From Escherichia coli (GTDB taxonomy: Bacteria > Pseudomonadota > Gammaproteobacteria > Enterobacterales > Enterobacteriaceae), in NCBI RefSeq assembly GCF_050320075.1, contig NZ_CP190018.1: a stretch of DNA of 64,000 bases. The stretch is one strand, 5' to 3'. Below the pieces are notes generated by a model. That model saw only the letters and a list, made by a program, of their open reading frames with translations. It was not told the origin of the DNA and made no database searches. Positions 10,549 through 32,434 of this stretch are shown one piece after another (the stretch's first letter is position 1; each line of letters opens with the position of its first letter). Made by a program: the position numbers and the translations under genes.

Positions 10549-10609
10549 CCGGAGGCGTCAGTCAGTCCGGGAAAACCTTCACGATTAACTCTTTATTTCA
10601 GGAAAAACT

Positions 10610-11683: not shown

Positions 11684-11686
11684 CCG

Positions 11687-12430: not shown

Positions 12431-12529
12431 CAACCGAATGCGCCCCGCGCCAGGGCGGCACGCCGGTCAGTGAGGGTGAATCACCTGACACTGCACCGGC
12501 GTCCACCGCCCGACTTTTCAGAGGTAGTC

Positions 12530-13242: not shown

Positions 13243-13245
13243 CGC

Positions 13246-14024: not shown

Positions 14025-14038
14025 ACGGAGTAAACACC

Positions 14039-14464: not shown

Positions 14465-14877
14465 TGACTGTGCTGGTTGTGTTGTTATCACTGGCGGTGG
14501 CCGGTCTGTTTCTGGTGAAACATAAAAATGCCACCCTGCGCACCTCACTGGACAGGGCGAACAACGTCGCCAGTGAACAGCAGACGACCATCACCATGCT
14601 GAAAAATCAGCTTCATGTTGCGCTCACCAGGGCAGACAAAAACGAGCTGGCGCAGGTGACTCTGCGTCAGGAACTGGAAAACGCCGCGAAGCGTGAAGCA
14701 CAGCGCGAGAAAACCATCACGAGATTACTCAATGAAAACGAAGATTTTCGCCGCTGGTACGGTGCTGACCTGCCTGATGCTGTGCGCCGGTTGCACCAGC
14801 GCCCCGCCTGCACTGACGCCAGTGATTGTCCACAACGCCTGCCCGAAAGTGAGCCTTTGCCCGATGCCGGGCAGTGA
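14452..14877 (+). CDS. lysB: i-spanin (P2 LysB-like)
   Basis: 141 aa with N-terminal TM and coiled-coil, position. Confidence 0.75.
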   Translation: MSKLMTVLVVLLSLAVAGLFLVKHKNATLRTSLDRANNVASEQQTTITMLKNQLHVALTRADKNELAQVTLRQELENAAKREAQREKTITRLLNENEDFRRWYGADLPDAVRRLHQRPACTDASDCPQRLPESEPLPDAGQ

Positions 14878-15022
14878 CCCGCAGACGAACGGCGATTTAA
14901 GTGCTGATATCCGGCAGCTTGAGAACGCGCTGGCACGCTGTGCCAGCCAGGTAAAAATGATTAAACACTGTCAGGACGAAAACGATGCTCAAACCCGACA
15001 GCCTGCGCAGGGCGCTGACTGA
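14732..15022 (+). CDS. lysC: o-spanin lipoprotein (P2 LysC-like), starts in +1 frame inside lysB
   Basis: MKTKIFAAGTVLTCLMLCAGC lipobox signal; overlapping-gene arrangement typical of spanin pairs. Confidence 0.65.
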   Translation: MKTKIFAAGTVLTCLMLCAGCTSAPPALTPVIVHNACPKVSLCPMPGSDPQTNGDLSADIRQLENALARCASQVKMIKHCQDENDAQTRQPAQGAD

Positions 15023-15452
15023 TGCCGTCACGGTGCTGAAAACCAGTCCCGATATGCTGCGGATATTCGTGGATAACGGGAGTATTGCCTCCACGCTGGC
15101 GGCGTCGTTGTCATTCGAAAAGCGTTACACGCTCAATGTGATTGTGACCGACTTTACCGGTGATTTTGACCTGCTCATCGTGCCGGTGCTGGCGTGGCTG
15201 CGGGAAAATCAGCCCGACATCATGACCACCGACGCAGGCCAGAAAAAGGGCTTCACGTTTTATGCAGACATCAACAATGACAGCAGCTTTGATATCAGCA
15301 TCAGCCTGATGCTGACCGAGCGCACGCTGGTCAGTGAGGTTGACGGCGCACTGCATGTGAAGAATATCCCGGAACCCCCGCCGCCGGAGCCGGTCAACCG
15401 CCCGATGGAGCTTTATATCAATGGCGAACTGGTGAGCAAGTGGGATGAATGA
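14985..15452 (+). CDS. R: Tail completion protein (P2 gpR-like)
   Basis: 155 aa, size and position. Confidence 0.85.
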   Translation: MLKPDSLRRALTDAVTVLKTSPDMLRIFVDNGSIASTLAASLSFEKRYTLNVIVTDFTGDFDLLIVPVLAWLRENQPDIMTTDAGQKKGFTFYADINNDSSFDISISLMLTERTLVSEVDGALHVKNIPEPPPPEPVNRPMELYINGELVSKWDE

Positions 15453-15897
15453 GTTTAAGCGTTTTGAAGACCGGCTGACCGGACTGATTGAGTCGCTGTC
15501 ACCGTCAGGGCGTCGGCGACTGAGTGCCGAACTGGCGAAGCGCCTGCGGCAGAGTCAGCAGCGTCGGGTGATGGCACAGAAAGCCCCGGACGGCACACCC
15601 TACGCGCCACGCCAGCAGCAGAGCGCCAGAAAAAAGACTGGTCGTGTTAAGCGAAAAATGTTTGCGAAACTTATCACCAGTCGTTTTTTGCATATCCGCG
15701 CCAGCCCGGAGCAGGCATCAATGGAATTTTACGGCGGAAAGTCGCCGAAAATCGCCAGTGTGCATCAGTTTGGTCTGTCGGAAGAAAACCGGAAAGACGG
15801 TAAGAAAATTGATTATCCGGCGCGTCCTCTGCTCGGCTTTACCGGTGAGGATGTGCAGATGATTGAAGAGATTATCCTGGCTCACCTTGAGCGTTAG
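15445..15897 (+). CDS. S: Tail completion protein (P2 gpS-like)
   Basis: 150 aa, size and position. Confidence 0.85.
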   Translation: MNEFKRFEDRLTGLIESLSPSGRRRLSAELAKRLRQSQQRRVMAQKAPDGTPYAPRQQQSARKKTGRVKRKMFAKLITSRFLHIRASPEQASMEFYGGKSPKIASVHQFGLSEENRKDGKKIDYPARPLLGFTGEDVQMIEEIILAHLER

Positions 15898-15930
15898 TTT
15901 TATCCAGGCAGAGGCTGATGCGCAATTAAG

Positions 15931-15962
15931 CATTGAGCGGCCGTGCTGGTCGCTCAATATTT
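15931..15962. terminator. Bidirectional stem-loop between convergent S and the reverse-oriented cargo gene
   Basis: Perfect 8-bp inverted repeat attgagcg...cgctcaat with 10-nt loop. Confidence 0.45.
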
Positions 15963-15968
15963 AGAGGT

Positions 15969-16754
15969 TTATGAGTGGTTTTTATTTGATGCTTTGTATT
16001 CTAAAACCTTCTTATTGGCGTAAAGGAATTTTGTATATGACAGGAATATAAGCAGACCTGAAATGAAATAGGTTAGGGATATTATTAATAATGTTTTTTT
16101 GTAGCTGTTATTATCTTTAATCTCCTGACTTAACCATTCGGAGTCCTCCTTGTTTAGCTGTAAGAGCTTATTGCAGGCGATCTCGGGAAGTGTGTCTTTT
16201 ATAAATACGTTTTGCAGACTCTTGCAATCGGCAAGGCTATAAGTTTTATTAAATTCAACCGTTTTATTTTTGAAGGATAAAAGAACTTTGTCACTATAAA
16301 CATAGTACATCATATTTTTATATGGTATACCTATGGCATCCCTTACTATAGCGGATTGTTCATTGTGTATATAACATGCGAAGAGAATATAAATAATACT
16401 GGCCAGAATTACAATTGTTGTTTTAATTATGTGTGGTGGTTTTGTTATGTCACCCCAGAAGCGAGTAAGGAAAAAATACGATGTTTTTAGTTTTCCATCA
16501 ATCAGCCCCTGCTGTATCATTCTCACATCTTCGATGCCTGATACATTGATTCCGTTAATTATTTTAAATAGTTGAATGTCGCGCCATTTTTTGTCGAGCA
16601 TTTTTAACTTTCTGTCTGAATACTCAAGATTGAAATGATGTGCAATAAACCTCATAAGATTACTTTTACCAAAGGTAACAAATGTTAATGCTATTAATAA
16701 AAATAGATACAAAGAGATAAACCACCACGCATTAGTCACATTATCACTGAACAT
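15969..16754 (-). CDS. Integral membrane protein, 261 aa, three predicted TM helices, reverse-oriented moron between S and V (cargo)
   Basis: ORF track; GAGGAG RBS 6 nt upstream of ATG; very AT-rich; opposite strand to the flanking late operon. Confidence 0.7.
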   Translation of the reverse strand: MFSDNVTNAWWFISLYLFLLIALTFVTFGKSNLMRFIAHHFNLEYSDRKLKMLDKKWRDIQLFKIINGINVSGIEDVRMIQQGLIDGKLKTSYFFLTRFWGDITKPPHIIKTTIVILASIIYILFACYIHNEQSAIVRDAIGIPYKNMMYYVYSDKVLLSFKNKTVEFNKTYSLADCKSLQNVFIKDTLPEIACNKLLQLNKEDSEWLSQEIKDNNSYKKTLLIISLTYFISGLLIFLSYTKFLYANKKVLEYKASNKNHS

Positions 16755-16837
16755 TACGCTCTCCTCGAATGTTGTATGGTCGTTCTACAAATGAATCCAG
16801 ATAGCATAACTTTTATATATTGTGCAATCTCACACGC

Positions 16838-17473
16838 ATGAACACTCTCGCAAATATTCAGGAACTCGCGCGCGCACTGCGCAACATGATCCGCACCGGC
16901 ATTATCGTCGAAACCGACCTTAATGCCGGTCGCTGCCGTGTGCAGACCGGCGGCATGTGCACCGACTGGCTTCAGTGGCTGACCCATCGCGCCGGGCGTT
17001 CGCGCACATGGTGGGCACCTTCCGTGGGGGAACAGGTGCTGATTCTGGCCGTGGGTGGTGAACTCGACACGGCGTTCGTTCTGCCGGGGATTTATTCCGG
17101 CGATAACCCCGCGCCGTCTGCGTCGGCGGATGCCCTGCATATCCGTTTCCCTGACGGGGCGGTGATTGAGTATGAACCTGAAACCAGCGCGCTCACGGTA
17201 AGCGGAGTTAAAACGGCCAGCGTGACGGCTTCTGATTCTGTTACTGCCACGGTGCCGGTGGTCATGGTGAAAGCATCAACCCGCATCACCCTGGACACAC
17301 CGGAGGTGGTCTGCACCAACAGGCTGATTACCGGCACGCTGGAAGTGCAGAAGGGCGGGACGATGCGCGGCAACATTGAACACACCGGCGGTGAGCTCTC
17401 ATCAAACGGTAAGGTACTGCATACCCATAAACACCCCGGCGACAGCGGCGGCACAACCGGGGGACCTCTATGA
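16838..17473 (+). CDS. V: Baseplate spike protein (P2 gpV-like)
   Basis: 211 aa from ATG at 16838 (MNTLANIQELARAL...); track ORF begins at an upstream TTG. Confidence 0.85.
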   Translation: MNTLANIQELARALRNMIRTGIIVETDLNAGRCRVQTGGMCTDWLQWLTHRAGRSRTWWAPSVGEQVLILAVGGELDTAFVLPGIYSGDNPAPSASADALHIRFPDGAVIEYEPETSALTVSGVKTASVTASDSVTATVPVVMVKASTRITLDTPEVVCTNRLITGTLEVQKGGTMRGNIEHTGGELSSNGKVLHTHKHPGDSGGTTGGPL

Positions 17474-17817
17474 CTGCGCGTTATCTCGGAATGAATCGCA
17501 GTGATGGCCTGACTGTCACTGACCTTGAGCATATCAGCCAGAGTATCGGCGATATCCTGCGTACCCCCGTCGGCTCACGGGTGATGCGTCGTGATTACGG
17601 CTCGTTGCTGGCGTCAATGATTGACCAGCCGCAGACCCCGGCGCTTGAGTTGCAGATTAAGGTCGCCTGTTACATGGCAGTGCTGAAATGGGAACCCCGC
17701 GTCACCCTGTCATCCGTCACCACGGCGCGCAGTTTTGACGGGCGAATGACGGTCACGTTAACCGGTCAGCACAACGACACCGGCCAGCCACTTTCGTTAA
17801 CCATCCCTGTGAGTTGA
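17470..17817 (+). CDS. W: Baseplate protein (P2 gpW-like)
   Basis: 115 aa, size and position. Confidence 0.85.
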   Translation: MTARYLGMNRSDGLTVTDLEHISQSIGDILRTPVGSRVMRRDYGSLLASMIDQPQTPALELQIKVACYMAVLKWEPRVTLSSVTTARSFDGRMTVTLTGQHNDTGQPLSLTIPVS

Positions 17818-17821
17818 AACC

Positions 17822-18730
17822 ATGCCGATTATCGACCTGAACCAGCTACCCGCACCGGATGTGGTCGAGGAGCTGGACTTTGAAACCATTCTTGCCGAAC
17901 GCAAGGCGACACTGATTTCCCTTTACCCGGAAGACCAGCAGGAGGCGGTCGCCCGTACCCTGACGCTGGAATCCGAACCTCTCGTCAAACTGCTGGAGGA
18001 AAATGCTTATCGTGAGCTTATCTGGCGTCAGCGTGTGAATGAGGCCGCACGGGCGGTGATGCTGGCCTGTGCAGCCGGTAATGACCTTGATGTGATTGGT
18101 GCCAATTACAACACCACACGCCTGATTATCACCCCGGCAGATGATTCGACCATCCCGCCGACACCGGCAGTGATGGAATCTGACACCGATTATCGTCTGC
18201 GTATTCAGCAGGCGTTTGAAGGTTTAAGCGTTGCCGGGTCGGTGGGAGCCTATCAGTATCATGGTCGCAGTGCCGACGGGCGTGTCGCGGATATCTCTGT
18301 CACCAGTCCGTCTCCGGCCTGTGTCACTATCTCCGTGCTGTCCCGCGAAAATAACGGTGTCGCATCCGAAGACCTGCTGGCTGTGGTGCGTAACGCTCTT
18401 AATGGCGAGGACGTCAGGCCGGTGGCTGACCGCGTGACCGTGCAGTCTGCCGCCATTGTTGAATATCAGATAAACGCCACGCTTTACCTTTACCCTGGTC
18501 CCGAAAGCGAACCCATCCGCGCTGCTGCCGTGAAAAAACTGGAAGCGTATATCACGGCACAGCACCGGCTGGGGCGCGACATCCGTCTGTCTGCCATTTA
18601 TGCCGCTTTGCATGTGGAGGGCGTGCAGCGTGTCGAGCTGGCCGCACCGCTGGCCGATATCGTGCTTAACAGCACGCAGGCGTCTTTCTGTACCGAATAC
18701 CGCGTCGTGACCGGAGGCCCGGATGAGTGA
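17822..18730 (+). CDS. J: Baseplate protein (P2 gpJ-like)
   Basis: 302 aa, size and position. Confidence 0.85.
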   Translation: MPIIDLNQLPAPDVVEELDFETILAERKATLISLYPEDQQEAVARTLTLESEPLVKLLEENAYRELIWRQRVNEAARAVMLACAAGNDLDVIGANYNTTRLIITPADDSTIPPTPAVMESDTDYRLRIQQAFEGLSVAGSVGAYQYHGRSADGRVADISVTSPSPACVTISVLSRENNGVASEDLLAVVRNALNGEDVRPVADRVTVQSAAIVEYQINATLYLYPGPESEPIRAAAVKKLEAYITAQHRLGRDIRLSAIYAALHVEGVQRVELAAPLADIVLNSTQASFCTEYRVVTGGPDE

Positions 18731-19253
18731 TTCGCGCCTGCTGCCGACCGGCTCATCACCGCTTGAAGTTGCCGCCGCAAAAGCCTGTGCGGAAATTGAA
18801 AAAACGCCGGTCAGTATTCGTGAGCTGTGGAACCCGGATACCTGTCCGGCAAATCTGCTGCCGTGGCTGGCGTGGGCGTTTTCGGTCGACAGGTGGGATG
18901 AAAAGTGGCCGGAAGCAACAAAACGCGCTGTTATCCGCGATGCGTATTTCATTCACTGCCATAAGGGCACTATAGGCGCAATCCGGCGTGTGGTGGAGCC
19001 GCTCGGCTATCTCATCAACGTGACGGAGTGGTGGGAAAACAGTGACCCGCCCGGCACCTTCCGGCTTGATATTGGTGTACTGGAAAGTGGCATCACAGAG
19101 GCAATGTATCAGGAAATGGAACGGCTTATTGCTGATGCCAAACCTGCAAGCCGTCACCTTATTGGTCTGAACATTACCCGGGACATTCCCGGCTACCTGT
19201 TCGCCGGTGGTGTGGCTTATGACGGCGATGTAATTACGGTTTACCCCGGATAA
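18723..19253 (+). CDS. I: Baseplate protein (P2 gpI-like)
   Basis: 176 aa, size and position. Confidence 0.85.
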   Translation: MSDSRLLPTGSSPLEVAAAKACAEIEKTPVSIRELWNPDTCPANLLPWLAWAFSVDRWDEKWPEATKRAVIRDAYFIHCHKGTIGAIRRVVEPLGYLINVTEWWENSDPPGTFRLDIGVLESGITEAMYQEMERLIADAKPASRHLIGLNITRDIPGYLFAGGVAYDGDVITVYPG

Positions 19254-19263
19254 GTGAGGAATA

Positions 19264-21417
19264 ATGAGCACAAAATTCAAAACCGTTATCACCACTGCCG
19301 GTGCAGCAAAGCTGGCAGCGGCAACCGCACCGGGAGGGCGGAAGGTCAATATTACCACGATGGCCGTCGGGGATGGCGGTGGTAAATTGCCTGTCCCGGA
19401 TGCCGGACAGACCGGGCTTATCCACGAAGTCTGGCGACATGCGCTGAACAAAATCAGCCAGGACAAACGAAACAGTAATTATATTATCGCAGAGCTGGTT
19501 ATTCCGCCGGAGGTGGGCGGCTTCTGGATGCGTGAGCTTGGCCTGTACGATGATGCGGGAACGTTAATTGCCGTGGCGAACATGGCCGAAAGTTATAAAC
19601 CTGCCCTTGCCGAAGGCTCAGGGCGTTCGCAGACCTGCCGCATGGTCATCATCGTCAGCAGTGTGGCCTCAGTGGAGCTGACCATTGACACCACAACGGT
19701 GATGGCGACGCAGGATTACGTTGATGACAAAATTGCAGAGCATGAACAGTCACGACGTCACCCGGACGCCTCGCTGACCGCAAAAGGTTTTACTCAGTTA
19801 AGCAATGCGACCAACAGCACGTCTGAAACACTGGCCGCAACGCCGAAAGCGGTTAAGGCCGCATATGACCTTGCTAACGGGAAATATACCGCACAGGACG
19901 CTACCACAGCGCGAAAAGGTCTTGTCCAGCTAAGTAGTGCGACCAACAGCATGTCTGAAACGCTCGCCGCAACACCAAAAGCCGTTAAGACGGTAATGGA
20001 TGAAACGAACAAGAAAGCGCCATTAAACAGCCCTGCACTGACCGGAACGCCAACGACGCCAACTGCGCGACAGGGAACGAATAATACTCAGATCGCAAAC
20101 ACGGCTTTCGTTATGGCCGCGATTGCCGCCCTTGTAGACTCGTCGCCTGACGCACTGAATACGCTGAACGAGCTGGCGGCGGCGCTGGGCAATGACCCGA
20201 ATTTTGCTACCACCATGACTAATGCGCTTGCGGGTAAGCAACCGAAAGATGCCACTTTGACGGCGCTGGCGGGGCTTGCTACTGCGGCAGACAGGTTTCC
20301 GTATTTTACGGGGAATGATGTTGCCAGCCTGGCGACCCTGACAAAAGTCGGGCGGGATATTCTGGCTAAATCGACCGTTGCCGCCGTTATCGAATATCTC
20401 GGTTTACAGGAAACGGTAAACCGAGCCGGGAACGCCGTGCAAAAAAATGGCGATACCTTGTCCGGTGGACTTACTTTTGAAAACGACTCAATCCTTGCCT
20501 GGATTCGAAATACTGACTGGGCGAAGATTGGATTTAAAAATGATGCCGATGGTGACACTGATTCATACATGTGGTTTGAAACAGGCGACAACGGCAATGA
20601 ATATTTCAAATGGAGAAGCAAACAAGGCACCACAACAAAAGACCTGATGAATCTTAAATGGGATGCTTTGTATGTTCTTGTCAATGCCATTGTAAATGGC
20701 GAAGTCATATCAAAATCAGCAAACGGCCTACGTATTGCTTATGGTAATTACGGATTCTTTATTCGTAATGATGGTTCAAATACATACTTCATGTTGACAA
20801 ACTCCGGTGACAACATGGGGACTTATAACGGATTAAGGCCATTATGGATTAATAACGCTACTGGCGCTGTTTCGATGGGGCGTGGCCTTAATGTTTCAGG
20901 AGAAACACTTTCAGACCGTTTTGCTATTAACAGCGGTAATGGTATGTGGATTCAGATGCGCGATAACAACGCTATCTTTGGGAAAAATATAGTTAACACT
21001 GATAGCGCCCAGGCCTTGCTCCGTCAGGACCATGCCGACCGCAAATTTATGATTGGCGGTCTGGGAAATAAGCAATTTGGCATCTACATGATTAATAACT
21101 CAAGGACAGCCAATGGCACCGATGGTCAGGCGTACATGGACAATAACGGTAACTGGCTTTGTGGTTCGCAAGTTATTCCCGGCAACTATGGCAATTTTGA
21201 TTCCAGATATGTGAAAGATGTTCGACTTGGTTCACAGCAATATTATGGAGTGAACAACTGGCAAACATGGAATTTCCAGTGCCCGTCAGGTCATGTATTG
21301 TCTGGTATTAATGTTCAGGATACAGGGTCCAACTCTGCCGATAATATAGCGGGCGTTTATTACAGACCCGTTCAAAAGTATATAAATGGCACCTGGTATA
21401 ATGTAGCGAGCGTTTAA
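19264..21417 (+). CDS. H: Tail fibre protein (P2 gpH-like), 717 aa with AT-rich C-terminal receptor-binding region
   Basis: Position after I; N-terminus conserved phage-fibre type; composition shifts in the distal half. Confidence 0.85.
19786..20001 (+). repeat. Two imperfect ~84-bp direct repeats inside gene H, encoding a duplicated G(F/L)(T/V)[19 protein letters not shown] motif
   Basis: Repeat copies at about 19786-19869 and 19918-20001 read directly in DNA and protein. Confidence 0.6.
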
Positions 21418-21946: not shown

Positions 21947-22240
21947 GTTGTATGAGTTCTGGTGGGAGTTTACATATCTATGGCACAGAGTAAAGCCTAA
22001 TCTGACAGTCCGCTCTGTGCCAGGAGCGGACATCCCACACTTCTGCTTCTGTGGCCAAAATCCGTATGCCACTACACTGCTGGCTTTTTAAGCGGCATTA
22101 ATCATATGGCTTCCTGTGAAAACGAAGGGTAAAATGGATAGGTATACGCTATAGAATTATGTATATGCTACATATACTAACAACGAAAGCAGGTTGCAAA
22201 GCAGCCTGTATAATCATCACTTAAGTTCATGGAATAAAAT

Positions 22241-22891
22241 ATGCATACTGGCTTTAAGGGAACTTATGACGCACTTTTGAGGCTTGAGAAGGCTATAGAA
22301 GGTCTGACCATCCAAGATGGGTTGATGACGAATACTCTTGGAGTTGGTGTTCCGGCAATAACATCAGATGACCTAATTGACCAAATAATTTGCATTATTA
22401 ACAAGCTGAAAGCATATGGTGATATTGAACTAACTGAAAAAGAAATTGCCGCTTATTCATCTCTCCCTGAAAAAATTGACACACTCATTAGAGTTCACGT
22501 CCCAGAGTTCTCAGGCGTTAACTCCGCACGAGCTATATCTTCATATATGCTAACACTGGCATATGTTGACCATTTCTTGGATGAATCGTTTACATGGAAG
22601 CGGTTGGATAATGCTAATTTACTTCCTAGAAATTTAAGCAGAAAAATTAAAAGCATGGAGGCGAGAATTAACAAGATTGATCCTGAGATGGATGCTCTTG
22701 AGAGTAAAGTTAAAACGATTAATGATGCTCATGTAGCTGCAGAAAATATACCTATAGACTTAAATGAATTAAAGGAATACAACAAAGAAGCATCTGATTT
22801 AAAGGAGAAGATATCTAAAACTCATTTCAGTTTAGAGTCCCAAGAAGAAGCCGCAAAAAAAATTATTGATGAGTTGCAAGAAAAAATATAG
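22241..22891 (+). CDS. Cargo protein at the Z/fun position, N-terminal part: 216 aa, soluble, coiled-coil-rich C-terminal half; probably the 5' portion of a longer frameshifted gene
   Basis: ORF track; TATAAT-like -10 element about 27 nt upstream; ends in TAG at 22889-22891 directly after an A6 tract. Confidence 0.6.
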   Translation: MHTGFKGTYDALLRLEKAIEGLTIQDGLMTNTLGVGVPAITSDDLIDQIICIINKLKAYGDIELTEKEIAAYSSLPEKIDTLIRVHVPEFSGVNSARAISSYMLTLAYVDHFLDESFTWKRLDNANLLPRNLSRKIKSMEARINKIDPEMDALESKVKTINDAHVAAENIPIDLNELKEYNKEASDLKEKISKTHFSLESQEEAAKKIIDELQEKI

Positions 22892-23016
22892 AGGCTGCCC
22901 GGTATCTGGCTCTTTGCGAAGAGGCTATTAGGGCTTCAACATCGAAAGGCTTAGCAGGAGCATTTGAAATAAAAGCAGATAAGCTTAACCGAAGTATCCA
23001 ACTATGGGTTGCCGGT

Positions 23017-23541
23017 TTGGCAGTTGCTTTGGGGCTTGGTGGTTTAGTCGGATATGAAAGATTGAAAGTTCTTTCTGGGGTTTTGAATAACCCAAATCCC
23101 AGTGCGGTAGTAATACTCACTCAATTACTATTATCTGTTTTTAGCATAGGCGCCCCTCTTTGGTTTGCTTGGATGTCTACAAAACAAATTAATCAACGTT
23201 TCAAACTCGCAGAGGATTATGCTTATAAAGCTTCTGTGGCTAAAGCGTATGAGGGATACAAAAATGAGGCATGCAAGGTATCAGATGGAGAGTTCGAAAA
23301 ACGCTTATTTGATTCTGCGCTAAGTCGACTTGAAGAGGCTCCATTGCGTTTTGTGAAAGATGAAGATCATACTACTCCTTGGACAGAAATGCTTAATTCT
23401 AAGTCGTTTCAAAAATTCTTAGATGCCTCCATTGATAATGTAAATTATGTTAAAGGGATTATAAGTAAGAAAGGCCAATCAGCAGCTAAAGCAAGCAATG
23501 ATGAGGTTAATCACATTGAAAAACTAAAGAATGAAGCTTGA
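23017..23541 (+). CDS. Cargo protein, C-terminal part: two TM helices plus about 130-aa C-terminal domain; reading frame is open back to 22873 with no in-frame ATG or RBS, consistent with fusion to the upstream ORF through a -1 shift
   Basis: Track start is a TTG; hand translation of 22873-23016 is stop-free and continues the coiled-coil (EAARYLALCEEAIRASTSKG...). Confidence 0.5.
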   Translation: MAVALGLGGLVGYERLKVLSGVLNNPNPSAVVILTQLLLSVFSIGAPLWFAWMSTKQINQRFKLAEDYAYKASVAKAYEGYKNEACKVSDGEFEKRLFDSALSRLEEAPLRFVKDEDHTTPWTEMLNSKSFQKFLDASIDNVNYVKGIISKKGQSAAKASNDEVNHIEKLKNEA

Positions 23542-23553
23542 ATTATAATACTG

Positions 23554-23576
23554 CCTCCGCAAGTGCGAGGCTTTTA
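23554..23576 (+). terminator. Rho-independent terminator after the Z/fun-position cargo gene
   Basis: gcctc-cgcaagtgc-gaggc stem-loop followed by TTTT. Confidence 0.6.
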
Positions 23577-23582
23577 CATTAA

Positions 23583-23611
23583 CTGCCCTGCAGTAAATCT
23601 AGGGCAGTTTT
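23583..23611 (+). terminator. Second tandem terminator
   Basis: ctgccct-...-agggcag stem-loop followed by TTTT. Confidence 0.55.
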
Positions 23612-23910
23612 ACGTGCTAGGGGCTGAGTTGGCTAACCGGCTCTTTCAGCAGTCGGTCTGCCGCTATTGAGCTGGGGCTCAACGTGTGTGAGAACGTCAG
23701 ATTCAATACGTAGGTATGGCCTCACTCCTTATTTGAGCACTCGCAATACAGAGCGTTAAAGTGATCGCCTTTCGGTACTGATCTGCGAATGACTTTGGGG
23801 GATTTGCACTCAGGGGAGAGTAACTTCGTGACAACTTCCGCTCTTAGCTAAAAGCAGACTGTCATATTTGATAGCGTTTCGGCTATGTAAATAGTCAGTC
23901 GGAAAATGAG

Positions 23911-23928
23911 TGTGTACAAATCAGGACA
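23911..23928 (+). promoter_or_regulatory. P2 late-promoter activator site (TGT-N12-ACA dyad) upstream of FI
   Basis: tgt-gtacaaatcagg-aca read in sequence about 120 nt upstream of the FI start; P2/P4 late promoters bound by Ogr/Delta carry this dyad. Confidence 0.45.
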
Positions 23929-24051
23929 GGCGGGCTGATTTCCCGCCTTTTCTTTATCTGTTGTTTCATCCCCTGACCAGCCAGGTCAAATAGCGTCTCA
24001 TGTACTACCCAACGGAAAATAGTTGCACCCATTAACCACGGAGTTAAACGG

Positions 24052-25242
24052 ATGAGTGACTATCATCACGGCGTGCAGGTGCTGGAGATTAACGACGGCA
24101 CCCGCGTCATTTCCACCGTATCCACGGCCATTGTCGGCATGGTCTGCACGGCCAGCGATGCGGATGCGGAAACCTTCCCCCTCAATAAACCGGTGCTGAT
24201 TACCAATGTGCAGAGCGCAATTGCAAAGGCCGGTAAAAAAGGCACGCTGGCGGCATCGTTGCAGGCCATCGCCGACCAGTCAAAACCGGTCACCGTTGTC
24301 GTGCGCGTGGAAGACGGCACCGGTGATGACGAGGAAACGAAACTCGCGCAGACCGTTTCCAATATCATCGGCACCACCGACGAAAACGGTCAGTATACCG
24401 GACTAAAAGCCCTGCTGGCGGCGGAGTCGGTAACCGGTGTTAAACCGCGTATTCTCGGTGTGCCGGGGCTGGACACCAAAGAGGTGGCTGTTGCACTGGC
24501 ATCCGTCTGTCAGAAGCTGCGCGCTTTCGGATATATCAGCGCATGGGGCTGTAAGACCATTTCCGAGGTGAAAGCCTACCGCCAGAATTTCAGCCAGCGT
24601 GAGCTGATGGTCATCTGGCCGGATTTCCTCGCATGGGATACGGTCGCCAGTACCACCGCCACCGCGTATGCCACCGCCCGTGCGCTGGGCCTGCGCGCTA
24701 AAATCGACCAGGAGCAGGGCTGGCATAAAACGCTGTCCAACGTCGGGGTAAACGGTGTTACCGGCATCAGTGCCTCTGTATTCTGGGATTTGCAGGAGTC
24801 CGGCACCGATGCTGACCTGTTGAACGAGTCAGGTGTCACAACGCTGATTCGCCGTGACGGTTTCCGATTCTGGGGTAACCGTACCTGCTCTGATGACCCG
24901 CTGTTCCTCTTTGAAAACTACACCCGCACCGCGCAGGTGCTGGCCGACACGATGGCTGAGGCGCACATGTGGGCGGTGGACAAGCCCATCACCGCAACGC
25001 TGATTCGCGACATCGTTGACGGCATCAATGCCAAATTCCGTGAGCTGAAAACAAACGGCTATATCGTGGATGCGACCTGCTGGTTCAGCGAAGAATCCAA
25101 CGATGCGGAAACCCTCAAGGCCGGAAAACTGTATATCGACTACGACTATACACCGGTGCCTCCTCTTGAAAACCTGACCCTGCGCCAGCGTATTACCGAT
25201 AAATACCTGGCAAATCTGGTCACCTCGGTTAACAGCAATTAA
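24052..25242 (+). CDS. FI: Tail sheath protein (P2 gpFI-like)
   Basis: 396 aa, size and position. Confidence 0.9.
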   Translation: MSDYHHGVQVLEINDGTRVISTVSTAIVGMVCTASDADAETFPLNKPVLITNVQSAIAKAGKKGTLAASLQAIADQSKPVTVVVRVEDGTGDDEETKLAQTVSNIIGTTDENGQYTGLKALLAAESVTGVKPRILGVPGLDTKEVAVALASVCQKLRAFGYISAWGCKTISEVKAYRQNFSQRELMVIWPDFLAWDTVASTTATAYATARALGLRAKIDQEQGWHKTLSNVGVNGVTGISASVFWDLQESGTDADLLNESGVTTLIRRDGFRFWGNRTCSDDPLFLFENYTRTAQVLADTMAEAHMWAVDKPITATLIRDIVDGINAKFRELKTNGYIVDATCWFSEESNDAETLKAGKLYIDYDYTPVPPLENLTLRQRITDKYLANLVTSVNSN

Positions 25243-25254
25243 GGAGCCTGACCG

Positions 25255-25773
25255 ATGGCAATGCCGCGCAAACTCAAGTTAATGAACGTCTTTCTGAACG
25301 GCTACAGCTATCAGGGCGTTGCAAAGTCCGTCACGCTGCCAAAACTGACCCGTAAGCTCGAAAACTATCGCGGTGCGGGGATGAACGGCAGCGCACCGGT
25401 AGACCTCGGCCTTGATGACGATGCGCTGTCAATGGAGTGGTCGCTCGGGGGCTTCCCGGATTCGGTTATCTGGGAGCTTTACGCCGCAACCGGTGTGGAT
25501 GCTGTGCCGATTCGTTTTGCAGGCTCTTACCAGCGTGACGATACCGGCGAAACGGTGGCCGTCGAAGTGGTCATGCGTGGCCGTCAGAAAGAAATCGACA
25601 CCGGCGAGGGTAAACAGGGAGAAGACACTGAGTCGAAAATCTCCGTGGTCTGCACCTATTTCCGGCTGACGATGGACGGTAAGGAGCTGGTCGAAATCGA
25701 CACCATCAACATGATTGAGAAGGTGAACGGCGTCGACCGGCTGGAGCAACACCGCCGCAATATCGGCCTGTGA
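25255..25773 (+). CDS. FII: Tail tube protein (P2 gpFII-like)
   Basis: 172 aa, size and position. Confidence 0.9.
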   Translation: MAMPRKLKLMNVFLNGYSYQGVAKSVTLPKLTRKLENYRGAGMNGSAPVDLGLDDDALSMEWSLGGFPDSVIWELYAATGVDAVPIRFAGSYQRDDTGETVAVEVVMRGRQKEIDTGEGKQGEDTESKISVVCTYFRLTMDGKELVEIDTINMIEKVNGVDRLEQHRRNIGL

Positions 25774-25829
25774 TTTTCATCCGGTCAGCCAGGCTGACCG
25801 GTTAACCCTGATTCAGAAGTGAGAAAACC

Positions 25830-26105
25830 ATGAACAAAGAAAATGTGATTACCCTGGACAATCCGGTCAAGCGTGGTGAGCAGGTTATCGAACAGGTCAC
25901 GCTGATGAAACCCAATGCCGGGACGCTGCGCGGTGTCAGTCTGGCTGCGGTCGCAAACTCCGAAGTCGATGCACTGATTAAAGTGCTGCCGCGCATGACG
26001 GCACCGATGCTGACTGAGCAGGAGGTCGCCGCGCTGGAGCTGCCTGACCTTGTGGCGCTGGCCGGTAAGGTGGTCGGTTTTTTGTCGCCGAACTCGGTGC
26101 AGTGA
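25830..26105 (+). CDS. E: Tail assembly chaperone (P2 gpE-like)
   Basis: 91 aa; contains slippery T TTT TTG near its 3' end. Confidence 0.8.
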   Translation: MNKENVITLDNPVKRGEQVIEQVTLMKPNAGTLRGVSLAAVANSEVDALIKVLPRMTAPMLTEQEVAALELPDLVALAGKVVGFLSPNSVQ

Positions 26106-26257
26106 CGTTTCCGAAAAATCTCTCGGTCGATGACCTGATGGCGGATGTGGCAGTGATATTTCACTGGCCGCCATCAGAACTGTATCCCATGAGCCTGACC
26201 GAACTCATCACATGGCGCGAAAAGGCGCTCCGGCGAAGCGGAAACACGAATGAGTAA
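25830..26257 (+). CDS. E+E': Tail assembly chaperone frameshift product (P2 gpE+E'-like), -1 programmed frameshift at T6G (26078-26084)
   Basis: Slippery heptamer TTTTTTG in zero-frame phase T TTT TTG; -1 frame stays open to TAA at 26255-26257, overlapping the T start; same arrangement as P2 E/E'. Confidence 0.65.
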
Positions 26258-28697
26258 CAATGTAAAATTACAGGTATTGCTCAGGGCTGTTGACCAGGCA
26301 TCCCGCCCGTTTAAATCCATCCGCACAGCGAGCAAGTCGCTGTCGGGGGATATCCGGGAAACACAAAAATCACTGCGCGAGCTGAACGGTCAGGCATCCC
26401 GTATTGAGGGATTCCGCAAGACCAGTGCACAGCTCGCCGTGACTGGTCATGCACTTGAAAAGGCTCGGCAGGAAGCAGAAGCCCTTGCCACACAGTTTAA
26501 AAACACCGAACGTCCGACCCGTGCTCAGGCGAAAGTGCTGGAATCCGCAAAGCGTGCGGCGGAGGACTTACAGGCGAAATATAACCGCCTGACGGATTCC
26601 GTTAAACGCCAGCAGCGGGAACTGGCCGCTGTGGGAATTAATACCCGCAATCTTGCACATGATGAGCAGGGACTGAAAAACCGTATCAGTGAAACCACCG
26701 CACAGCTTAACCGTCAGCGCGACGCGCTGGCGCGTGTCAGTGCGCAACAGGCAAAACTTAACGCAGTCAAACAGCGTTATCAGGCCGGAAAGGAGCTGGC
26801 CGGAAATATGGCCTCGGTGGGCGCTGCCGGTGTGGGGATTGCGGCGGCGGGAACGATGGCCGGAGTTAAGTTGCTGATGCCCGGTTATGAGTTTGCGCAG
26901 AAAAACTCAGAATTGCAGGCCGTGCTCGGAGTGGCAAAAGACTCCGCCGAAATGACCGCACTACGCAAACAGGCGCGCCAGCTCGGCGACAATACCGCCG
27001 CTTCGGCGGATGATGCGGCCGGTGCACAGATAATCATCGCGAAAGCGGGTGGGGATGTTGATGCCATTCAGGCGGCAACGCCGGTCACGCTGAATATGGC
27101 GCTGGCGAACCGCCGCACGATGGAAGAAAACGCCGCCCTGCTGATGGGGATGAAATCCGCCTTTCAGCTTTCAAACGATAAGGTCGCTCATATCGGGGAT
27201 GTTCTCTCCATGACGATGAACAAAACCGCCGCCGATTTTGACGGCATGAGCGATGCGCTGACCTATGCCGCACCTGTGGCAAAAAATGCCGGTGTCAGCA
27301 TTGAAGAAACCGCCGCAATGGTCGGGGCGCTGCATGATGCAAAAATCACAGGCTCAATGGCGGGGACGGGAAGCCGTGCCGTGTTAAGCCGCCTGCAGGC
27401 ACCGACGGGAAAAGCATGGGATGCACTCAAAGAGCTTGGAGTGAAAACCTCAGACAGCAAGGGAAACACCCGGCCAATATTTACCATTCTGAAAGAAATG
27501 CAGGCCAGTTTTGAGAAAAACCGGCTCGGTACTGCCCAGCAGGCTGAATACATGAAAACTATTTTCGGGGAGGAGGCCAGCTCAGCCGCCGCCGTGCTGA
27601 TGACTGCCGCCTCAACCGGAAAGCTGGACAAACTGACCGCTGCGTTTAAAGCCTCAGACGGGAAGACCGCCGAGCTGGTAAATATCATGCAGGACAACCT
27701 CGGCGGTGACTTTAAAGAGTTTCAGTCCGCTTATGAGGCGGTGGGGACAGACCTGTTTGACCAGCAGGAAGGCGCACTGCGTAAGCTCACACAGACGGCC
27801 ACAAAGTATGTGTTAAAACTCGACGGCTGGATCCAGAAAAACAAATCACTGGCGTCAACCATTGGCATCATTGCCGGTGGCGCGCTGGCGCTTATTGGCA
27901 TCATCGGTGCAATTGGTCTTGTAGCCTGGCCGGTTATCACCGGCATCAATGCCATCATCGCGGCAGCAGGCGCAATGGGTGCAATCTTCACGACGGTTGG
28001 CAGTGCCGTTATGACTGCTATCGGGGTGATTAGCTGGCCGGTTGTGGCCGTGGTGGCTGCCATTGTCGCCGGGGCGTTGCTTATCCGTAAATACTGGGAG
28101 CCTGTCAGCGCATTCTTTGGCGGTGTGGTTGAAGGGCTGAAAGTGGCATTTGCGCCAGTGGGGGAACTGTTCACGCCACTTAAGCCGGTGTTTGACTGGC
28201 TGGGCGAAAAGTTACAGGCCGCGTGGCAGTGGTTTAAAAACCTGATTGCCCCGGTCAAAGCCACCCAGGACACCCTGAACCGTTGCCGTGATACGGGCGT
28301 CATGTTCGGGCAGGCACTGGCTGACGCGCTGATGCTGCCGCTTAATGCGTTCAACAAACTGCGCAGCGGTATTGACTGGGTACTGGAAAAACTCGGTGTT
28401 ATCAACAAAGAGTCAGACACACTTGACCAGACCGCCGCCAGAACTCAAGCCGCCACGTATGGCAGCGGTGGTTATATTCCGGCGACCAGCTCTTATGCAG
28501 GCTATCAGGCTTATCAGCCGGTCACGGCACCGGCTGGCCGCTCTTATGTGGACCAGAGTAAAAACGAATATCACATCAGCCTGACGGGTGGTACTGCACC
28601 GGGGACACAGCTTGACCGCCAGTTACAGGATGCGCTCGAAAAATACGAGCGGGATAAACGTGCGCGTGCCCGTGCCAGCATGATGCATGACGGTTAA
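26250..28697 (+). CDS. T: Tail tape measure protein (P2 gpT-like)
   Basis: 815 aa, Ala/Gly-rich helical and TM segments, position after E/E'. Confidence 0.9.
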   Translation: MSNNVKLQVLLRAVDQASRPFKSIRTASKSLSGDIRETQKSLRELNGQASRIEGFRKTSAQLAVTGHALEKARQEAEALATQFKNTERPTRAQAKVLESAKRAAEDLQAKYNRLTDSVKRQQRELAAVGINTRNLAHDEQGLKNRISETTAQLNRQRDALARVSAQQAKLNAVKQRYQAGKELAGNMASVGAAGVGIAAAGTMAGVKLLMPGYEFAQKNSELQAVLGVAKDSAEMTALRKQARQLGDNTAASADDAAGAQIIIAKAGGDVDAIQAATPVTLNMALANRRTMEENAALLMGMKSAFQLSNDKVAHIGDVLSMTMNKTAADFDGMSDALTYAAPVAKNAGVSIEETAAMVGALHDAKITGSMAGTGSRAVLSRLQAPTGKAWDALKELGVKTSDSKGNTRPIFTILKEMQASFEKNRLGTAQQAEYMKTIFGEEASSAAAVLMTAASTGKLDKLTAAFKASDGKTAELVNIMQDNLGGDFKEFQSAYEAVGTDLFDQQEGALRKLTQTATKYVLKLDGWIQKNKSLASTIGIIAGGALALIGIIGAIGLVAWPVITGINAIIAAAGAMGAIFTTVGSAVMTAIGVISWPVVAVVAAIVAGALLIRKYWEPVSAFFGGVVEGLKVAFAPVGELFTPLKPVFDWLGEKLQAAWQWFKNLIAPVKATQDTLNRCRDTGVMFGQALADALMLPLNAFNKLRSGIDWVLEKLGVINKESDTLDQTAARTQAATYGSGGYIPATSSYAGYQAYQPVTAPAGRSYVDQSKNEYHISLTGGTAPGTQLDRQLQDALEKYERDKRARARASMMHDG

Positions 28698-28711
28698 GGA
28701 GGTGACGAAAA

Positions 28712-29191
28712 ATGATGCTCGCGTTAGGTATGTTTGTTTTTATGCGCCAGACGCTGCCACACCAGATCATGCAGCGTGAATCAGATTATCGCTGGCCGTC
28801 AAATTCCCGTATCGGTAAACGGGATGCCTACCAGTTTCTCGGCGTTGGCGAGGAAAACATGACGCTGGCCGGTGTGCTTTATCCCGAACTGACCGGCGGC
28901 AAGCTGACGATGACCACGCTCAGGCTGATGGCAGATGAAGGCCGGGCGTGGCCGTTGCTGGATGGCACCGGCATGATTTACGGCATGTATGTCATCAGCA
29001 AGGTGAGTGAAACAGGGAGTATTTTCTTTGCAGACGGCACACCACGGAAAATTGATTTTACGCTGTCGCTCACCCGCGTTGATGAGTCACTGGCCGCGCT
29101 TTATGGCGATATCGGTAAACAGGCGGAATCGCTCATCGGTAAGGCTGGCAGTATGGCGACTAAATTCACGGGTATGACGGGGGCGGGATAA
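28712..29191 (+). CDS. U: Tail protein (P2 gpU-like)
   Basis: 159 aa, size and position. Confidence 0.85.
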   Translation: MMLALGMFVFMRQTLPHQIMQRESDYRWPSNSRIGKRDAYQFLGVGEENMTLAGVLYPELTGGKLTMTTLRLMADEGRAWPLLDGTGMIYGMYVISKVSETGSIFFADGTPRKIDFTLSLTRVDESLAALYGDIGKQAESLIGKAGSMATKFTGMTGAG

Positions 29192-30354
29192 TGCTGGATG
29201 CGCTGACATTTGATGCAGGCAGTACGCTGACGCCGGATTACATGCTGATGCTCGACAGCAGGGATATTACCGGCAATATCAGCGACCGTCTGATGAGCAT
29301 GACCCTGACGGATAACCGGGGCTTTGAGGCTGACCAGCTTGATATTGAACTGAACGATGCCGACGGGCAGGTCGAGCTACCGATTCGTGGCGCTGTCCTG
29401 ACGGTGTATATCGGCTGGAAAGGTTTTGCCCTGGTATGCAAAGGGAAATTTACCGTTGATGAGGTTGAACACCGGGGCGCGCCGGATGTGGTTACCATCC
29501 GCGCCCGGAGTGCAGATTTTCGCGGGACGCTCAATTCCCGCCGTGAAGGCTCCTGGCATGACACCACGCTCGGTGCGATTGTTGAGGCGATAGCCTCCCG
29601 TAACAAGCTGGAAGCCAGTATCGCTCCGTCACTGGCCGGAATTAAAATCCCGCACATCGACCAGTCGCAGGAGTCCGATGCGAAATTCCTGACCCGTCTT
29701 GCAGAACGCAACGGCGGTGAGGTGTCGGTAAAAATGGGAAAACTGCTGTTTCTCAAAGCGGGGCAGGGGGTGACGGCCAGCGGTAAAAAAATCCCGCAGA
29801 TTACCATCACCCGCAGCGATGGCGACCGTCACCATTTTGCGATTGCTGACCGTGGAGCCTACACCGGTGTAACGGCAAAGTGGTTACACACCAAAGACCC
29901 GAAGCCTCAAAAGCAGAAGGTAAAACTGAAACGCAAAAAGAAAGAAAAACACCTGCGCGCACTGGAGCACCCGAAAGCGAAACCGGTCACGCAGAAGAAA
30001 GCGCCAAAAGTACCGGAAGCGCGCGAAGGTGAATACATGGCCGGTGAAGCTGACAACGTTTTTGCCCTGACTACGGTATATGCCACAAAAGCGCAGGCCA
30101 TGCGCGCCGCTCAGGCAAAGTGGGACAAACTGCAACGGGGCGTCGCGGAGTTCTCCATCAGCCTGGCTACCGGTCGGGCAGATATTTACACGGAAACACC
30201 GGTTAAAGTGTCAGGCTTTAAGCGCGTCATAGACGAGCAGGACTGGACAATCACTAAGGTGACACATTTTCTGAATAATAGCGGCTTCACGACGTCCTTA
30301 GAGCTTGAGGTCAGGCTTTCTGATGTGGAGTACGAAACAGAAGATGATGAGTGA
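29191..30354 (+). CDS. D: Tail protein (P2 gpD-like)
   Basis: 387 aa, size and position. Confidence 0.85.
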   Translation: MLDALTFDAGSTLTPDYMLMLDSRDITGNISDRLMSMTLTDNRGFEADQLDIELNDADGQVELPIRGAVLTVYIGWKGFALVCKGKFTVDEVEHRGAPDVVTIRARSADFRGTLNSRREGSWHDTTLGAIVEAIASRNKLEASIAPSLAGIKIPHIDQSQESDAKFLTRLAERNGGEVSVKMGKLLFLKAGQGVTASGKKIPQITITRSDGDRHHFAIADRGAYTGVTAKWLHTKDPKPQKQKVKLKRKKKEKHLRALEHPKAKPVTQKKAPKVPEAREGEYMAGEADNVFALTTVYATKAQAMRAAQAKWDKLQRGVAEFSISLATGRADIYTETPVKVSGFKRVIDEQDWTITKVTHFLNNSGFTTSLELEVRLSDVEYETEDDE

Positions 30355-30435
30355 TGTTTATTATTTATCTGTTTGTTTTATAAGGATAAATTAACTAAAA
30401 TGGCACCATCAACAAAACCGGAAGAGGTGCTCGCG

Positions 30436-30654
30436 ATGTTTCATTGTCCTTTATGCCAGCATGCCGCACATGCGCGTACAAGTCGCTATATCACTGACAC
30501 GACAAAAGAGCGTTATCACCAGTGCCAGAACGTGAATTGCAGCGCCACGTTCATCACTTATGAGTCGGTACAGCGATACATCGTTAAGCCGGGAGAAGTC
30601 CACGCCGTAAGGCCGCACCCGTTGCCGTCAGGGCAGCAAATTATGTGGATGTAA
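30436..30654 (+). CDS. ogr: Late gene transcriptional activator Ogr (zinc-finger, Cys4)
   Basis: 72 aa MFHCPLCQHAAHARTSRYITDTTKERYHQCQNVNCSATF... with C-x2-C...C-x4-C motif; GAGG RBS; track ORF extended upstream. Confidence 0.85.
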   Translation: MFHCPLCQHAAHARTSRYITDTTKERYHQCQNVNCSATFITYESVQRYIVKPGEVHAVRPHPLPSGQQIMWM

Positions 30655-30664
30655 TTACAAACAG

Positions 30665-30691
30665 AAAGCCCCTCAGTCGAGGGGCTTTTTT
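30665..30691 (+). terminator. Rho-independent terminator after ogr
   Basis: aaagcccctc-agtc-gaggggcttt followed by TTTT. Confidence 0.7.
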
Positions 30692-30754
30692 GTCGATGTG
30701 GTCAATGTGTGGACGTGACCAGAAATAAATCCTTTTATTTCATCGTATTACGCG

Positions 30755-30842
30755 TAAAAAATAAGCCCGTGTAAGGGAGATTACACAGGCTAAGGAGGTG
30801 GTTCCTGGTACAGCTAGCATTTTATGGGTTATGTTTTTCAGC
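30755..30842 (-). ncRNA. cyaR: CyaR (RyeE) Hfq-dependent sRNA
   Basis: Reverse complement reads GCTGAAAAACATAACCCATAAAATGCTAGCTGTACCAGGAACCACCTCCTTAGCCTGTGTAATCTCCCTTACACGGGCTTATTTTTT, which matches my memory of E. coli CyaR; sits between yegQ and the ogr-type gene as in K-12. Confidence 0.7.
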
Positions 30843-30926
30843 GAAACGGATGATAACCTTAATAAATGCAGCTGTATGTGATCGGTTTCTAAGAATTTTC
30901 CATCCGGGAAAAATAATCGAAATTAA

Positions 30927-32288
30927 TCACTTACCGTGTGGGTTACGCGTGGTTTCCCCGGAGAAATTACGCATCAGCAGAGCGTAATTGAGCTCAAGAT
31001 CCTGCGGGACCGGGAGCCACACAGTATAACCATCGCCTGGTGCGACCGGCATCGCTTCACCTATGGCGTTTTCCATGTGCTCAAGGGTAAAGTTAATGTT
31101 GCCTTGCGGCGTCATCAGCTCAAGGCTGTCGCCAACGGAGAATTTATTTTTCACCGCTACCGCCGCGAGGTCCCCCTTGCGCTCACCGGTAAACTCACCA
31201 ACAAACTGCTGGCGGTCAGAAACTGAATAACCGTATTCGTAGTTCTGATAATCGTCGTGAGTATGACGACGCAGGAAACCTTCGGTATAGCCACGATGCG
31301 CCAGACCTTCCAGAGTTTCCAGCAGGCTGGTATCGAACGGTTTGCCCGCAGCGGCGTCATCGATAGCTTTACGGTAAACCTGTGCGGTGCGTGCGCAATA
31401 GTAGAAAGATTTAGTACGGCCTTCGATTTTCAGCGAATGCACGCCCATTTTGGTCAGGCGTTCTACATGGGCGATGGCGCGCAGATCTTTCGAGTTCATG
31501 ATGTAAGTGCCGTGCTCATCTTCAAACGCGGTCATATACTCGCCCGGACGCTGGGCTTCTTCGATCATAAACACTTTGTCGGTTGGCGCGCCGATACCCA
31601 GCGTCGGCTCAACATTTTGCACCGGAATCGGCTCGTACTTGTGTACGATGTTGCCAACGTCATCTTCTTTCCCTTCCTGGACGTTGTACTCCCAGCGGCA
31701 GGCGTTGGTGCAGGTACCCTGGTTCGGATCGCGCTTGTTGATATAGCCAGAGAGCAGGCAGCGACCGGAGTAGGCCATGCACAGTGCGCCGTGAACGAAG
31801 ATCTCGATCTCCATATCCGGCACCTGATTGCGGATCTCTTCAATCTCTTCCAGCGACAGCTCGCGAGAGAGGATCACGCGGGTCAGGCCCATTTGCTGCC
31901 AGAATTTCACCGTCGCCCAGTTTACGGCGTTAGCCTGCACCGAGAGGTGGATCGGCATTTCAGGGAAGTGCTCACGCACCAGCATAATCAGCCCTGGATC
32001 GGACATAATCAGCGCATCCGGCCCCATTTCCACCACCGGTTTCAGGTCACGGATAAAGGTTTTCAGCTTGGCGTTGTGCGGTGCAATGTTGACCACGACA
32101 TAAAACTTTTTCCCCAGCGCGTGGGCTTCATTGATGCCGAGCTGAAGATTTTCGTGGTTGAATTCGTTGTTGCGCACACGCAGGGAGTAACGCGGCTGGC
32201 CCGCATAAACAGCATCTGCGCCATAAGCGAAAGCGTAACGCATATTTTTCAGCGTTCCCGCCGGGGAAAGGAGTTCCGGTTTAAACAT
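30927..32288 (-). CDS. yegQ: Peptidase U32-family protein YegQ
   Basis: 453 aa, K-12 synteny downstream of baeR-yegP. Confidence 0.9.
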   Translation of the reverse strand: MFKPELLSPAGTLKNMRYAFAYGADAVYAGQPRYSLRVRNNEFNHENLQLGINEAHALGKKFYVVVNIAPHNAKLKTFIRDLKPVVEMGPDALIMSDPGLIMLVREHFPEMPIHLSVQANAVNWATVKFWQQMGLTRVILSRELSLEEIEEIRNQVPDMEIEIFVHGALCMAYSGRCLLSGYINKRDPNQGTCTNACRWEYNVQEGKEDDVGNIVHKYEPIPVQNVEPTLGIGAPTDKVFMIEEAQRPGEYMTAFEDEHGTYIMNSKDLRAIAHVERLTKMGVHSLKIEGRTKSFYYCARTAQVYRKAIDDAAAGKPFDTSLLETLEGLAHRGYTEGFLRRHTHDDYQNYEYGYSVSDRQQFVGEFTGERKGDLAAVAVKNKFSVGDSLELMTPQGNINFTLEHMENAIGEAMPVAPGDGYTVWLPVPQDLELNYALLMRNFSGETTRNPHGK

Positions 32289-32434
32289 AATTCTCTCGTT
32301 CTGATGACAGGTCAGATCCGCTTCACCTGATGAAGCGGTTAGGGGAGTGCCCCCACTTTAAGGGCGGGCATTGTAGCGCTGTGGGGGGATCTGGTAAAGC
32401 GCCGGACGCCAACAACCCACGCCCGGCATCGTAA

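Follow-up and report, generated by a model that had tools for sequence, protein, structure and literature searches.

The closest described relative of the arrangement analyzed here is the E/E+E' pair of phage P2, whose frameshift site was reportedly characterized experimentally in 2002, with the conservation of the device being described in 2004. Christie et al. (2002) are said to have measured about 10% shifting by means of fusion polypeptides and to have established by complementation that E' is essential. A -1 shift at TTTTTTG in P2 leads to two products, the 91-aa E and the 142-aa E+E' (PMC3091744), and E' lacks a ribosome binding site (PMC3931495); both the experimental observation of the fusion and the essential character of E' are attributed to Christie et al. 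2002 as this work is cited in PMC3091744 and PMC3931495.

Two further systems are relevant for comparison. The E. coli dnaX gene (gamma/tau, heptamer A AAA AAG) shares with the P2-type site a tandem slippage on X XXY YYZ from which two products arise in a fixed proportion; shifting gives the shorter of the two in dnaX, but the longer in the P2 type. In dnaX the shift is stimulated by an SD sequence located about 10 nt upstream and by a stable hairpin. In phage lambda, the mechanism and the ratio of the G/GT pair have been reviewed, and the role presumed to be common to such pairs is to provide, in a fixed proportion, two chaperones, neither of which is part of the virion (PMC5009743).

We analyzed a stretch of 64 kb, hereafter the window, which contains a heptamer TTTTTTG that is almost certainly, judging from its sequence and that of its relatives, the programmed -1 frameshift site by which a P2-type (Peduovirus) prophage makes its E/E+E' chaperone pair. 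The genes around it follow the order FI, FII, E, E', T, U, D, and each of them displays the expected Pfam family. The features of the operon, all of them on the plus strand, are as follows.

24052..25242, + strand: FI, tail sheath, first gene of the F operon (Pfam Phage_sheath_1; 98.5% aa identity to P2 FI).
25255..25773, + strand: FII, tail tube, 172 aa, directly upstream of E (Pfam Phage_tube, 2e-60; 100% aa identity to P2 FII).
25830..26105, + strand: E, zero-frame tail assembly chaperone, 91 aa, ATG start, stop TGA (PF10109 Phage_TAC_7; 90/91 aa as in P2 gpE).
26066..26074, + strand: SD-like TAAGGTGGT, 3 nt upstream of the heptamer (8/9 consensus bases; it also encodes K-V-V).
26069..26105, + strand: double-open E/E' stretch, 37 nt, in agreement with the 37 nt given for P2 (PMC3931495).
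26078..26084, + strand: slippery heptamer T TTT TTG (E codons F84 and L85; same as the annotated P2 site; in phase in 11/16 diverse relatives, the 5 others carrying different canonical heptamers).
26084..26257, + strand: E', -1 extension, 57 codons plus TAA, only the C-terminal part of E+E' (142 aa) (PF06528 Phage_P2_GpE).
26250..28697, + strand: T, tape measure, 815 aa (PhageMin_Tail, 2e-45; 98.4% aa identity to P2 T); the stop of E' and the ATG of T overlap.
28712..30354, + strand: U and D, completing the FETUD operon (Pfam Phage_P2_GpU and Phage_GPD; full length compared with P2).

Comparison of E with PF10109 (Phage_TAC_7) gave an E value of 2.6e-12 (47 bits, cut-off 25), while the E+E' fusion matched PF06528 (Phage_P2_GpE) with 1.2e-21 (76 bits, cut-off 23) over fusion residues 104-139. 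Neither FI, FII, E, T, U, D and ogr nor any other P2 late gene in the window is truncated or interrupted by a stop, bearing out the earlier claim of an intact tail module. Since E/E' is placed between FII and T and the stop of E' lies over the start of T, the location of the pair is that of the P2 type.

The heptamer occupies positions 26078-26084 and is read in the phase T TTT TTG within E, in codons GG-T TTT TTG (G83 F84 L85), so that E codon 83 (GGT) has the first T of the heptamer as its third base; the E-frame sequence at the site is GCC GGT AAG GTG GTC GGT TTT TTG TCG CCG AAC TCG GTG CAG TGA, with the stop TGA (26103-26105) seven codons on. From G26084 the -1 frame translates to VAELGAVTFPKNLSVDDLMADVAVIFHWPPSELYPMSLTELITWREKALRRSGNTNE*, that is, 57 sense codons (26084-26254) followed by TAA at 26255-26257, and this stop overlaps the start of T (ATGAGTAA, with the ATG of T at 26250). 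Only over the 37 nt of 26069-26105 are the frames of E and of the -1 extension (E') open at the same time, thus a shift must be confined to this stretch, and the heptamer is the sole in-phase XXXYYYZ found within it.

These data agree with the original prediction, which had placed the heptamer in zero-frame phase near the end of E (ATG at 25830) and the stop of E' over the start of T. The -1 frame was also described as open for 58 codons: it is indeed open up to the stop, but the sense codons number 57, the figure of 58 counting the stop codon, as the second segment of the P2 E+E' join (58) likewise does. A stop codon in the -1 frame immediately after the heptamer had been named as the observation that would speak against the site; there is none, the frame being open to the TAA at 26255-26257. 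This absence is a necessary but weak test, because frame geometry alone is not unique.

Indeed, TTTTTTG is found 18 times in the window, while 17.7 +/- 4.4 occurrences are expected from dinucleotide shuffles; the motif is not enriched, and enrichment was discarded as uninformative evidence. A geometry filter was also applied, which demanded that the phase of the heptamer be open over 60 codons or more on its upstream side, that the zero frame stop no more than 15 codons further on and that the -1 frame stay open over 50 codons or more; 4 of the 456 XXXYYYZ heptamers present on both strands of the window passed it. Apart from the site itself, these were a heptamer at 60522, rejected as belonging to an off-frame ORF inside a 379-aa gene, another one at 51736, rejected as lying on the antisense strand of a 1105-aa gene, and a last one at 18804(-), opposite the P2 baseplate/tail-fibre genes. 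As the motif occurs at chance frequency and the geometry is not unique, the case for the site rests on homology and conservation.

Regarding homology, positions 25780-26300 are 98% identical to P2 (NC_001895), and the alignment with P2 E/E' that had been proposed as a check showed the heptamer, the whole of E' and the start of T to be identical. Of the 11 positions that differ in this alignment, 9 lie inside E and all come before column 261; 10 base substitutions were counted upstream of 26039, and E shows a single amino acid difference (N29 here, S29 in P2). Over 26039-26393, a 354-nt stretch, there is no nucleotide difference from P2. A special constraint on this stretch was considered and rejected, difference-free runs of 342 and 282 nt being present elsewhere in the same operon; as far as the alignment tells, the P2-identical stretch is a case of patchy mosaic divergence. 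By megablast we retrieved 74 Peduovirus records with 95-99% identity.

The P2 record annotates E (91 aa) together with a joined two-piece CDS for E+E', described as 'shares amino terminus with gpE; -1 frameshift; essential tail protein', and marks a 'site of -1 translational frameshift' at the base right after the heptamer. When the window is compared with P2 E/E+E' (FETUD operon; Christie et al. 2002), the heptamer, its phase, the 37-nt overlap and the 91-aa and 142-aa products all match; the stop of E' over the start of T and the placement between FII and T are also common to both. The site is therefore already known: every feature of the P2 device that can be assessed from sequence was found, and its nucleotides are identical to those of the type example. 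The proposal that this is the same device as P2 E/E' was thus upheld by the 98% nucleotide identity, the P2 annotation and the matches to Phage_TAC_7 and Phage_P2_GpE.

To evaluate conservation, the 142-aa fusion was used as query in a tblastn search, which returned 424 phage records, and in 401 of these the coverage of the fusion was 80% or more. Sixty tblastn rows were sampled, almost all of which consisted of two joined pieces. We picked 16 records down the tblastn ranking, from 77% to 38% identity, from phages of Klebsiella, Erwinia, Yersinia, Burkholderia, Ralstonia, Salmonella, Pseudomonas, Zymomonas, Vibrio, Mannheimia and E. coli. In 16/16 the E'-like frame is -1 with respect to E and an in-phase X XXY YYZ heptamer is present in the overlap at the homologous position, as anticipated when the site was first described as conserved. 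T TTT TTG was the heptamer in 11 of them, even in the GC-rich Burkholderia, Ralstonia and Pseudomonas phages, the others being T TTT TTT, T TTT TTC, A AAT TTT, G GGA AAG and C CCT TTC. The tandem-slip fusions of the relatives can be aligned end to end and share the E' motif DD-ADIA-IFHW-P-E...WRE-A-RSG, and a stop-start overlap of the ATGAGTAA/ATGAGTGA kind is kept in 6 of them.

The T run has been exchanged in distant members of the gpE family (Mannheimia phage 587AP1, L016 682-688; L015 652-658; L017 643-649), where the heptamers are G GGA AAG, which is that of lambda, A AAT TTT and C CCT TTC. As the -1 layout is kept with these other heptamers, it is the device that is conserved, the slippery sequence being replaceable.

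Codon usage provides a further line of evidence. TTG accounts for 9 of the 184 other Leu codons in the 12 T TTT TTG loci and for 0 of 18 in the window; moreover, the GC-rich Burkholderia, Ralstonia and Pseudomonas loci, having a GC3 of 77-84% and 6-10% of T-ending codons, retain all six T's. The heptamer is thus kept against codon usage, which points to selection on the nucleotides and not on the Gly-Phe-Leu peptide.

This observation bears on whether E' could be a separate 51-aa gene, initiated at the GTG at 26102 without any frameshift. Such a gene is how the region appears in some annotations: the ORF list contains a 51-aa ORF with a GTG start at 26102-26257, and RefSeq PGAP annotates E' separately in E. 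coli Ec-U3 (NZ_CM192149, where positions 2803-2958 of the retrieved segment L020 correspond to 26102-26257 of the window) as a 51-aa 'GpE family phage tail protein' with a GTG start, as several phage records likewise do. However, our anti-SD scan detected no SD-like sequence just before the GTG at 26102 (CGAACTCGGTGCA-GTG), in line with the P2 E', which lacks a ribosome binding site according to the literature (PMC3931495). Independent initiation would also leave unexplained both the -1 relation found in 16/16 relatives and the in-phase heptamer; the choice of T TTT TTG codons counter to codon usage disfavours it as well, and in P2 experiments the fusion itself was seen (Christie 2002, as cited in PMC3091744 and PMC3931495). 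Even with the ORF list and the annotations in its favour, a separate E' gene is highly improbable.

Tandem -1 tRNA slippage is instead the best-supported account, in which we infer the frequency of the slip and the tRNA or tRNAs that slip. According to it, most ribosomes translating E would read GGT TTT TTG TCG... up to the TGA at 26103, giving the 91-aa gpE, while a minority would shift back by one base at T TTT TTG. In the P site, tRNA-Phe would move from UUU at 26079-81 to UUU at 26078-80, and in the A site tRNA-Leu would re-pair from UUG to UUU; the slipped ribosomes would then go on from G26084 in the -1 frame to the TAA at 26255-57, producing the 142-aa E+E' with the junction peptide VVGFLVAELGAVTFPK. 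In this way gpE and gpE+E' would be made at a fixed ratio from one initiation site, the ratio being set by the slip frequency, and the stop of E' over the start of T would tie the translation of T to the same message. If lambda gpG/gpGT can serve as a guide, the N-terminal part common to both products may coat the tape measure T, and the rarer E' domain may recruit tail tube subunits.

The same frame change could in principle arise before translation, if RNA polymerase inserted an extra U while transcribing the T6 run and ribosomes then read the altered mRNA normally. Transcriptional slippage sites are A/T homopolymers, usually of at least 8-9 bases, that require no codon phase, and efficient slippage of a bacterial RNA polymerase usually takes roughly 8-9 bases or more. 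The run found here (26078-26083) is of six T's, and its codon phase is strictly kept in the 13 relatives with a T run, although transcriptional slippage needs no phase. One added U would indeed produce the same change of frame (...GFFVAEL), and slippage during transcription has been documented as another possibility at A/T runs (PMC5009743); nevertheless, the heptamers of three homologues (G GGA AAG, A AAT TTT and C CCT TTC) are not homopolymeric, and suit tandem re-pairing of tRNAs but not slippage of a polymerase. We therefore consider that a transcriptional origin of the fusion has very little chance of being correct.

A variant of the tandem slip, in which the P-site tRNA-Phe alone slips while the A site waits on UUG, would place Phe instead of Leu at residue 85, and is possible though unlikely. 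Either this P-site-only slip or a transcriptionally added U would give the junction peptide VVGFFVAELGAVTFPK, in contrast to the VVGFLVAELGAVTFPK of the tandem slip. The rarity of TTG among Leu codons (0/18 others in the window) fits a P-site-only slip, as does the presence of G at the Z position in 11/13 relatives with a T run. Moreover, U_UU.G is a poor tetramer for A-site re-pairing in E. coli, where the order is A_AA.G > U_UU.Y > C_CC.Y > A_AA.A (PMC4066793). On the other hand, conservation covers the full X XXY YYZ and extends beyond XXXY, which counts against a slip of the P-site tRNA alone, and the join given in the P2 record is that of tandem slippage, as deduced from its segment lengths of 85 + 57 codons.

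We also looked for elements that could stimulate the slippage of tRNAs. A 120-nt fold gave z = -2.4, but the 50 nt next to the heptamer were no more stable than shuffled sequences (z = -0.31); RNAalifold predicted no pairs and no consensus structure for 14 homologues. A CGCCG/CGGUG hairpin starting 2 nt after the heptamer was rejected, being too close and not conserved, and an Rfam scan of 25700-26400 yielded only a sub-threshold chance match (flpD, 18 bits vs a cut-off of 40). These results are consistent with P2, which has no downstream stimulatory structure (PMC3091744).

Upstream of the heptamer, the SD-like TAAGGTGGT forms an anti-SD duplex of -8.7 kcal/mol, which is within the top 1.2% of the 10-nt windows of the FI-D operon. 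An AGGTG-like motif precedes the heptamer in 8/12 T6G loci, a count confounded with the conserved K/E-V-V/I residues that the motif encodes. The SD spacing that stimulates -1 shifts is reportedly 10-14 nt (Larsen et al. 1994), unlike the 3 nt observed here. As for the heptamer, U_UU.U_UU.G is absent from the list of the most efficient ones in E. coli reporter assays, and genes with programmed -1 frameshifting need not use high-efficiency motifs (PMC4066793). Given that T TTT TTG does not rank with the top heptamers of those reporters and is not accompanied by a downstream structure, an undescribed helper of the P2-type shift is conceivable, such as the SD-like TAAGGTGGT or a P-site-only slip at a UUG pause (Phe85), a dependence that we nonetheless hold to be rather improbable.

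The locus had also been described as lambda G/GT-like, which holds for its layout and presumed role but not for its sequence. In both cases the genes for the tube and the tape measure enclose two overlapping ORFs, of which the second is in the -1 frame; a slippery heptamer lies a few codons before the first stop, and the second stop overlaps the start of the tape measure gene. However, BLASTP of P2-type E against lambda G produced no alignment at E <= 100, and the Pfam families are different, lambda G and T belonging to PF06894 and PF06223 (Phage_TAC_2, Phage_tail_T) and the proteins of the window to PF10109 and PF06528. The heptamer of lambda is G GGA AAG (1210-1216 of the retrieved lambda segment L019) instead of T TTT TTG, and its tail is non-contractile, whereas the P2-type tail is contractile. 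A search of PDB sequences with the E+E' fusion found no solved relative. Unlike dnaX, the site described here shows no conserved downstream structure, and its SD-like element is only 3 nt away.

The window contains the greater part of the P2-like prophage, namely gene A (1-2283), the segment from cos through H (6525-20700) and that from pF to the att core (23831-30782), the last one comprising the pF promoter, FETUD, ogr and the att core; the int/C/cox side lies beyond the window. Position 1 corresponds to the ATG of the homologue of P2 gene A, whose ORF is of 759 aa, compared with 761 in P2, and ends at the junction with non-P2 cargo. The right end of the prophage (ogr, att core) abuts trhP/yegQ from 30783, followed by yegP, baeR, baeS and mdtD/C, so that the window belongs to the E. 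coli chromosome. At least 80% of the junction segment (30300-32300) is carried by 1273 of 5426 complete E. coli genomes, indicating that P2-type DNA is common at trhP/yegQ; that of Ec-U3 is 100% identical to the window.

Thus, in contrast to P2, the element resides in the E. coli chromosome as a prophage beside trhP/yegQ, with other cargo at the tin/old and Z/fun positions. At the tin/old position (2610-4749, + strand) there are instead three ORFs of 124, 185 and 315 aa, for which PADLOC gave matches to 2TM-TIR (2e-58), 1TM-TIR (3e-75) and TIR-TM (2e-118; Pfam TIR_2). By these matches the three ORFs look like a complete 2TM-1TM-TIR anti-phage defence system, situated in a known P2 cargo hotspot. 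Between this system and cos, two more cargo ORFs of 94 aa (5216-5500) and 305 aa (5503-6420) are found on the + strand, 2 nt apart; neither had a match in Pfam or PADLOC, and together they may form a further defence or accessory pair.

At 22032-23830, unrelated DNA stands in place of the P2 Z/fun gene. This segment includes an ORF of 216 aa (22241-22891) displaying only weak LmuB/AAA-like matches, around 1e-3, and an ORF of 174 aa with a TTG start (23017-23541), for which no significant match was obtained.

The tail fibre gene H (19264-21417) encodes 717 aa, compared with 669 in P2, and its product is 73% identical to that of P2; G is 86% identical. Over 20700-21373, corresponding to the C-terminal receptor-binding part of H, no nucleotide homology to P2 remains. 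The divergence of H and G suggests a host range other than that of P2.

Being already known from P2, the site adds nothing new on frameshifting or on tail assembly. Its main value is that of a quality control, as the original prediction had proposed in regarding it as an internal control for the frame calls: those of FI, FII, E, T, U and D are right and the tail module is intact. The writing of E' as a free gene of 37-51 aa by PGAP and in many phage records is a systematic annotation gap, and E' belongs in the annotation as part of the 142-aa E+E' frameshift fusion.
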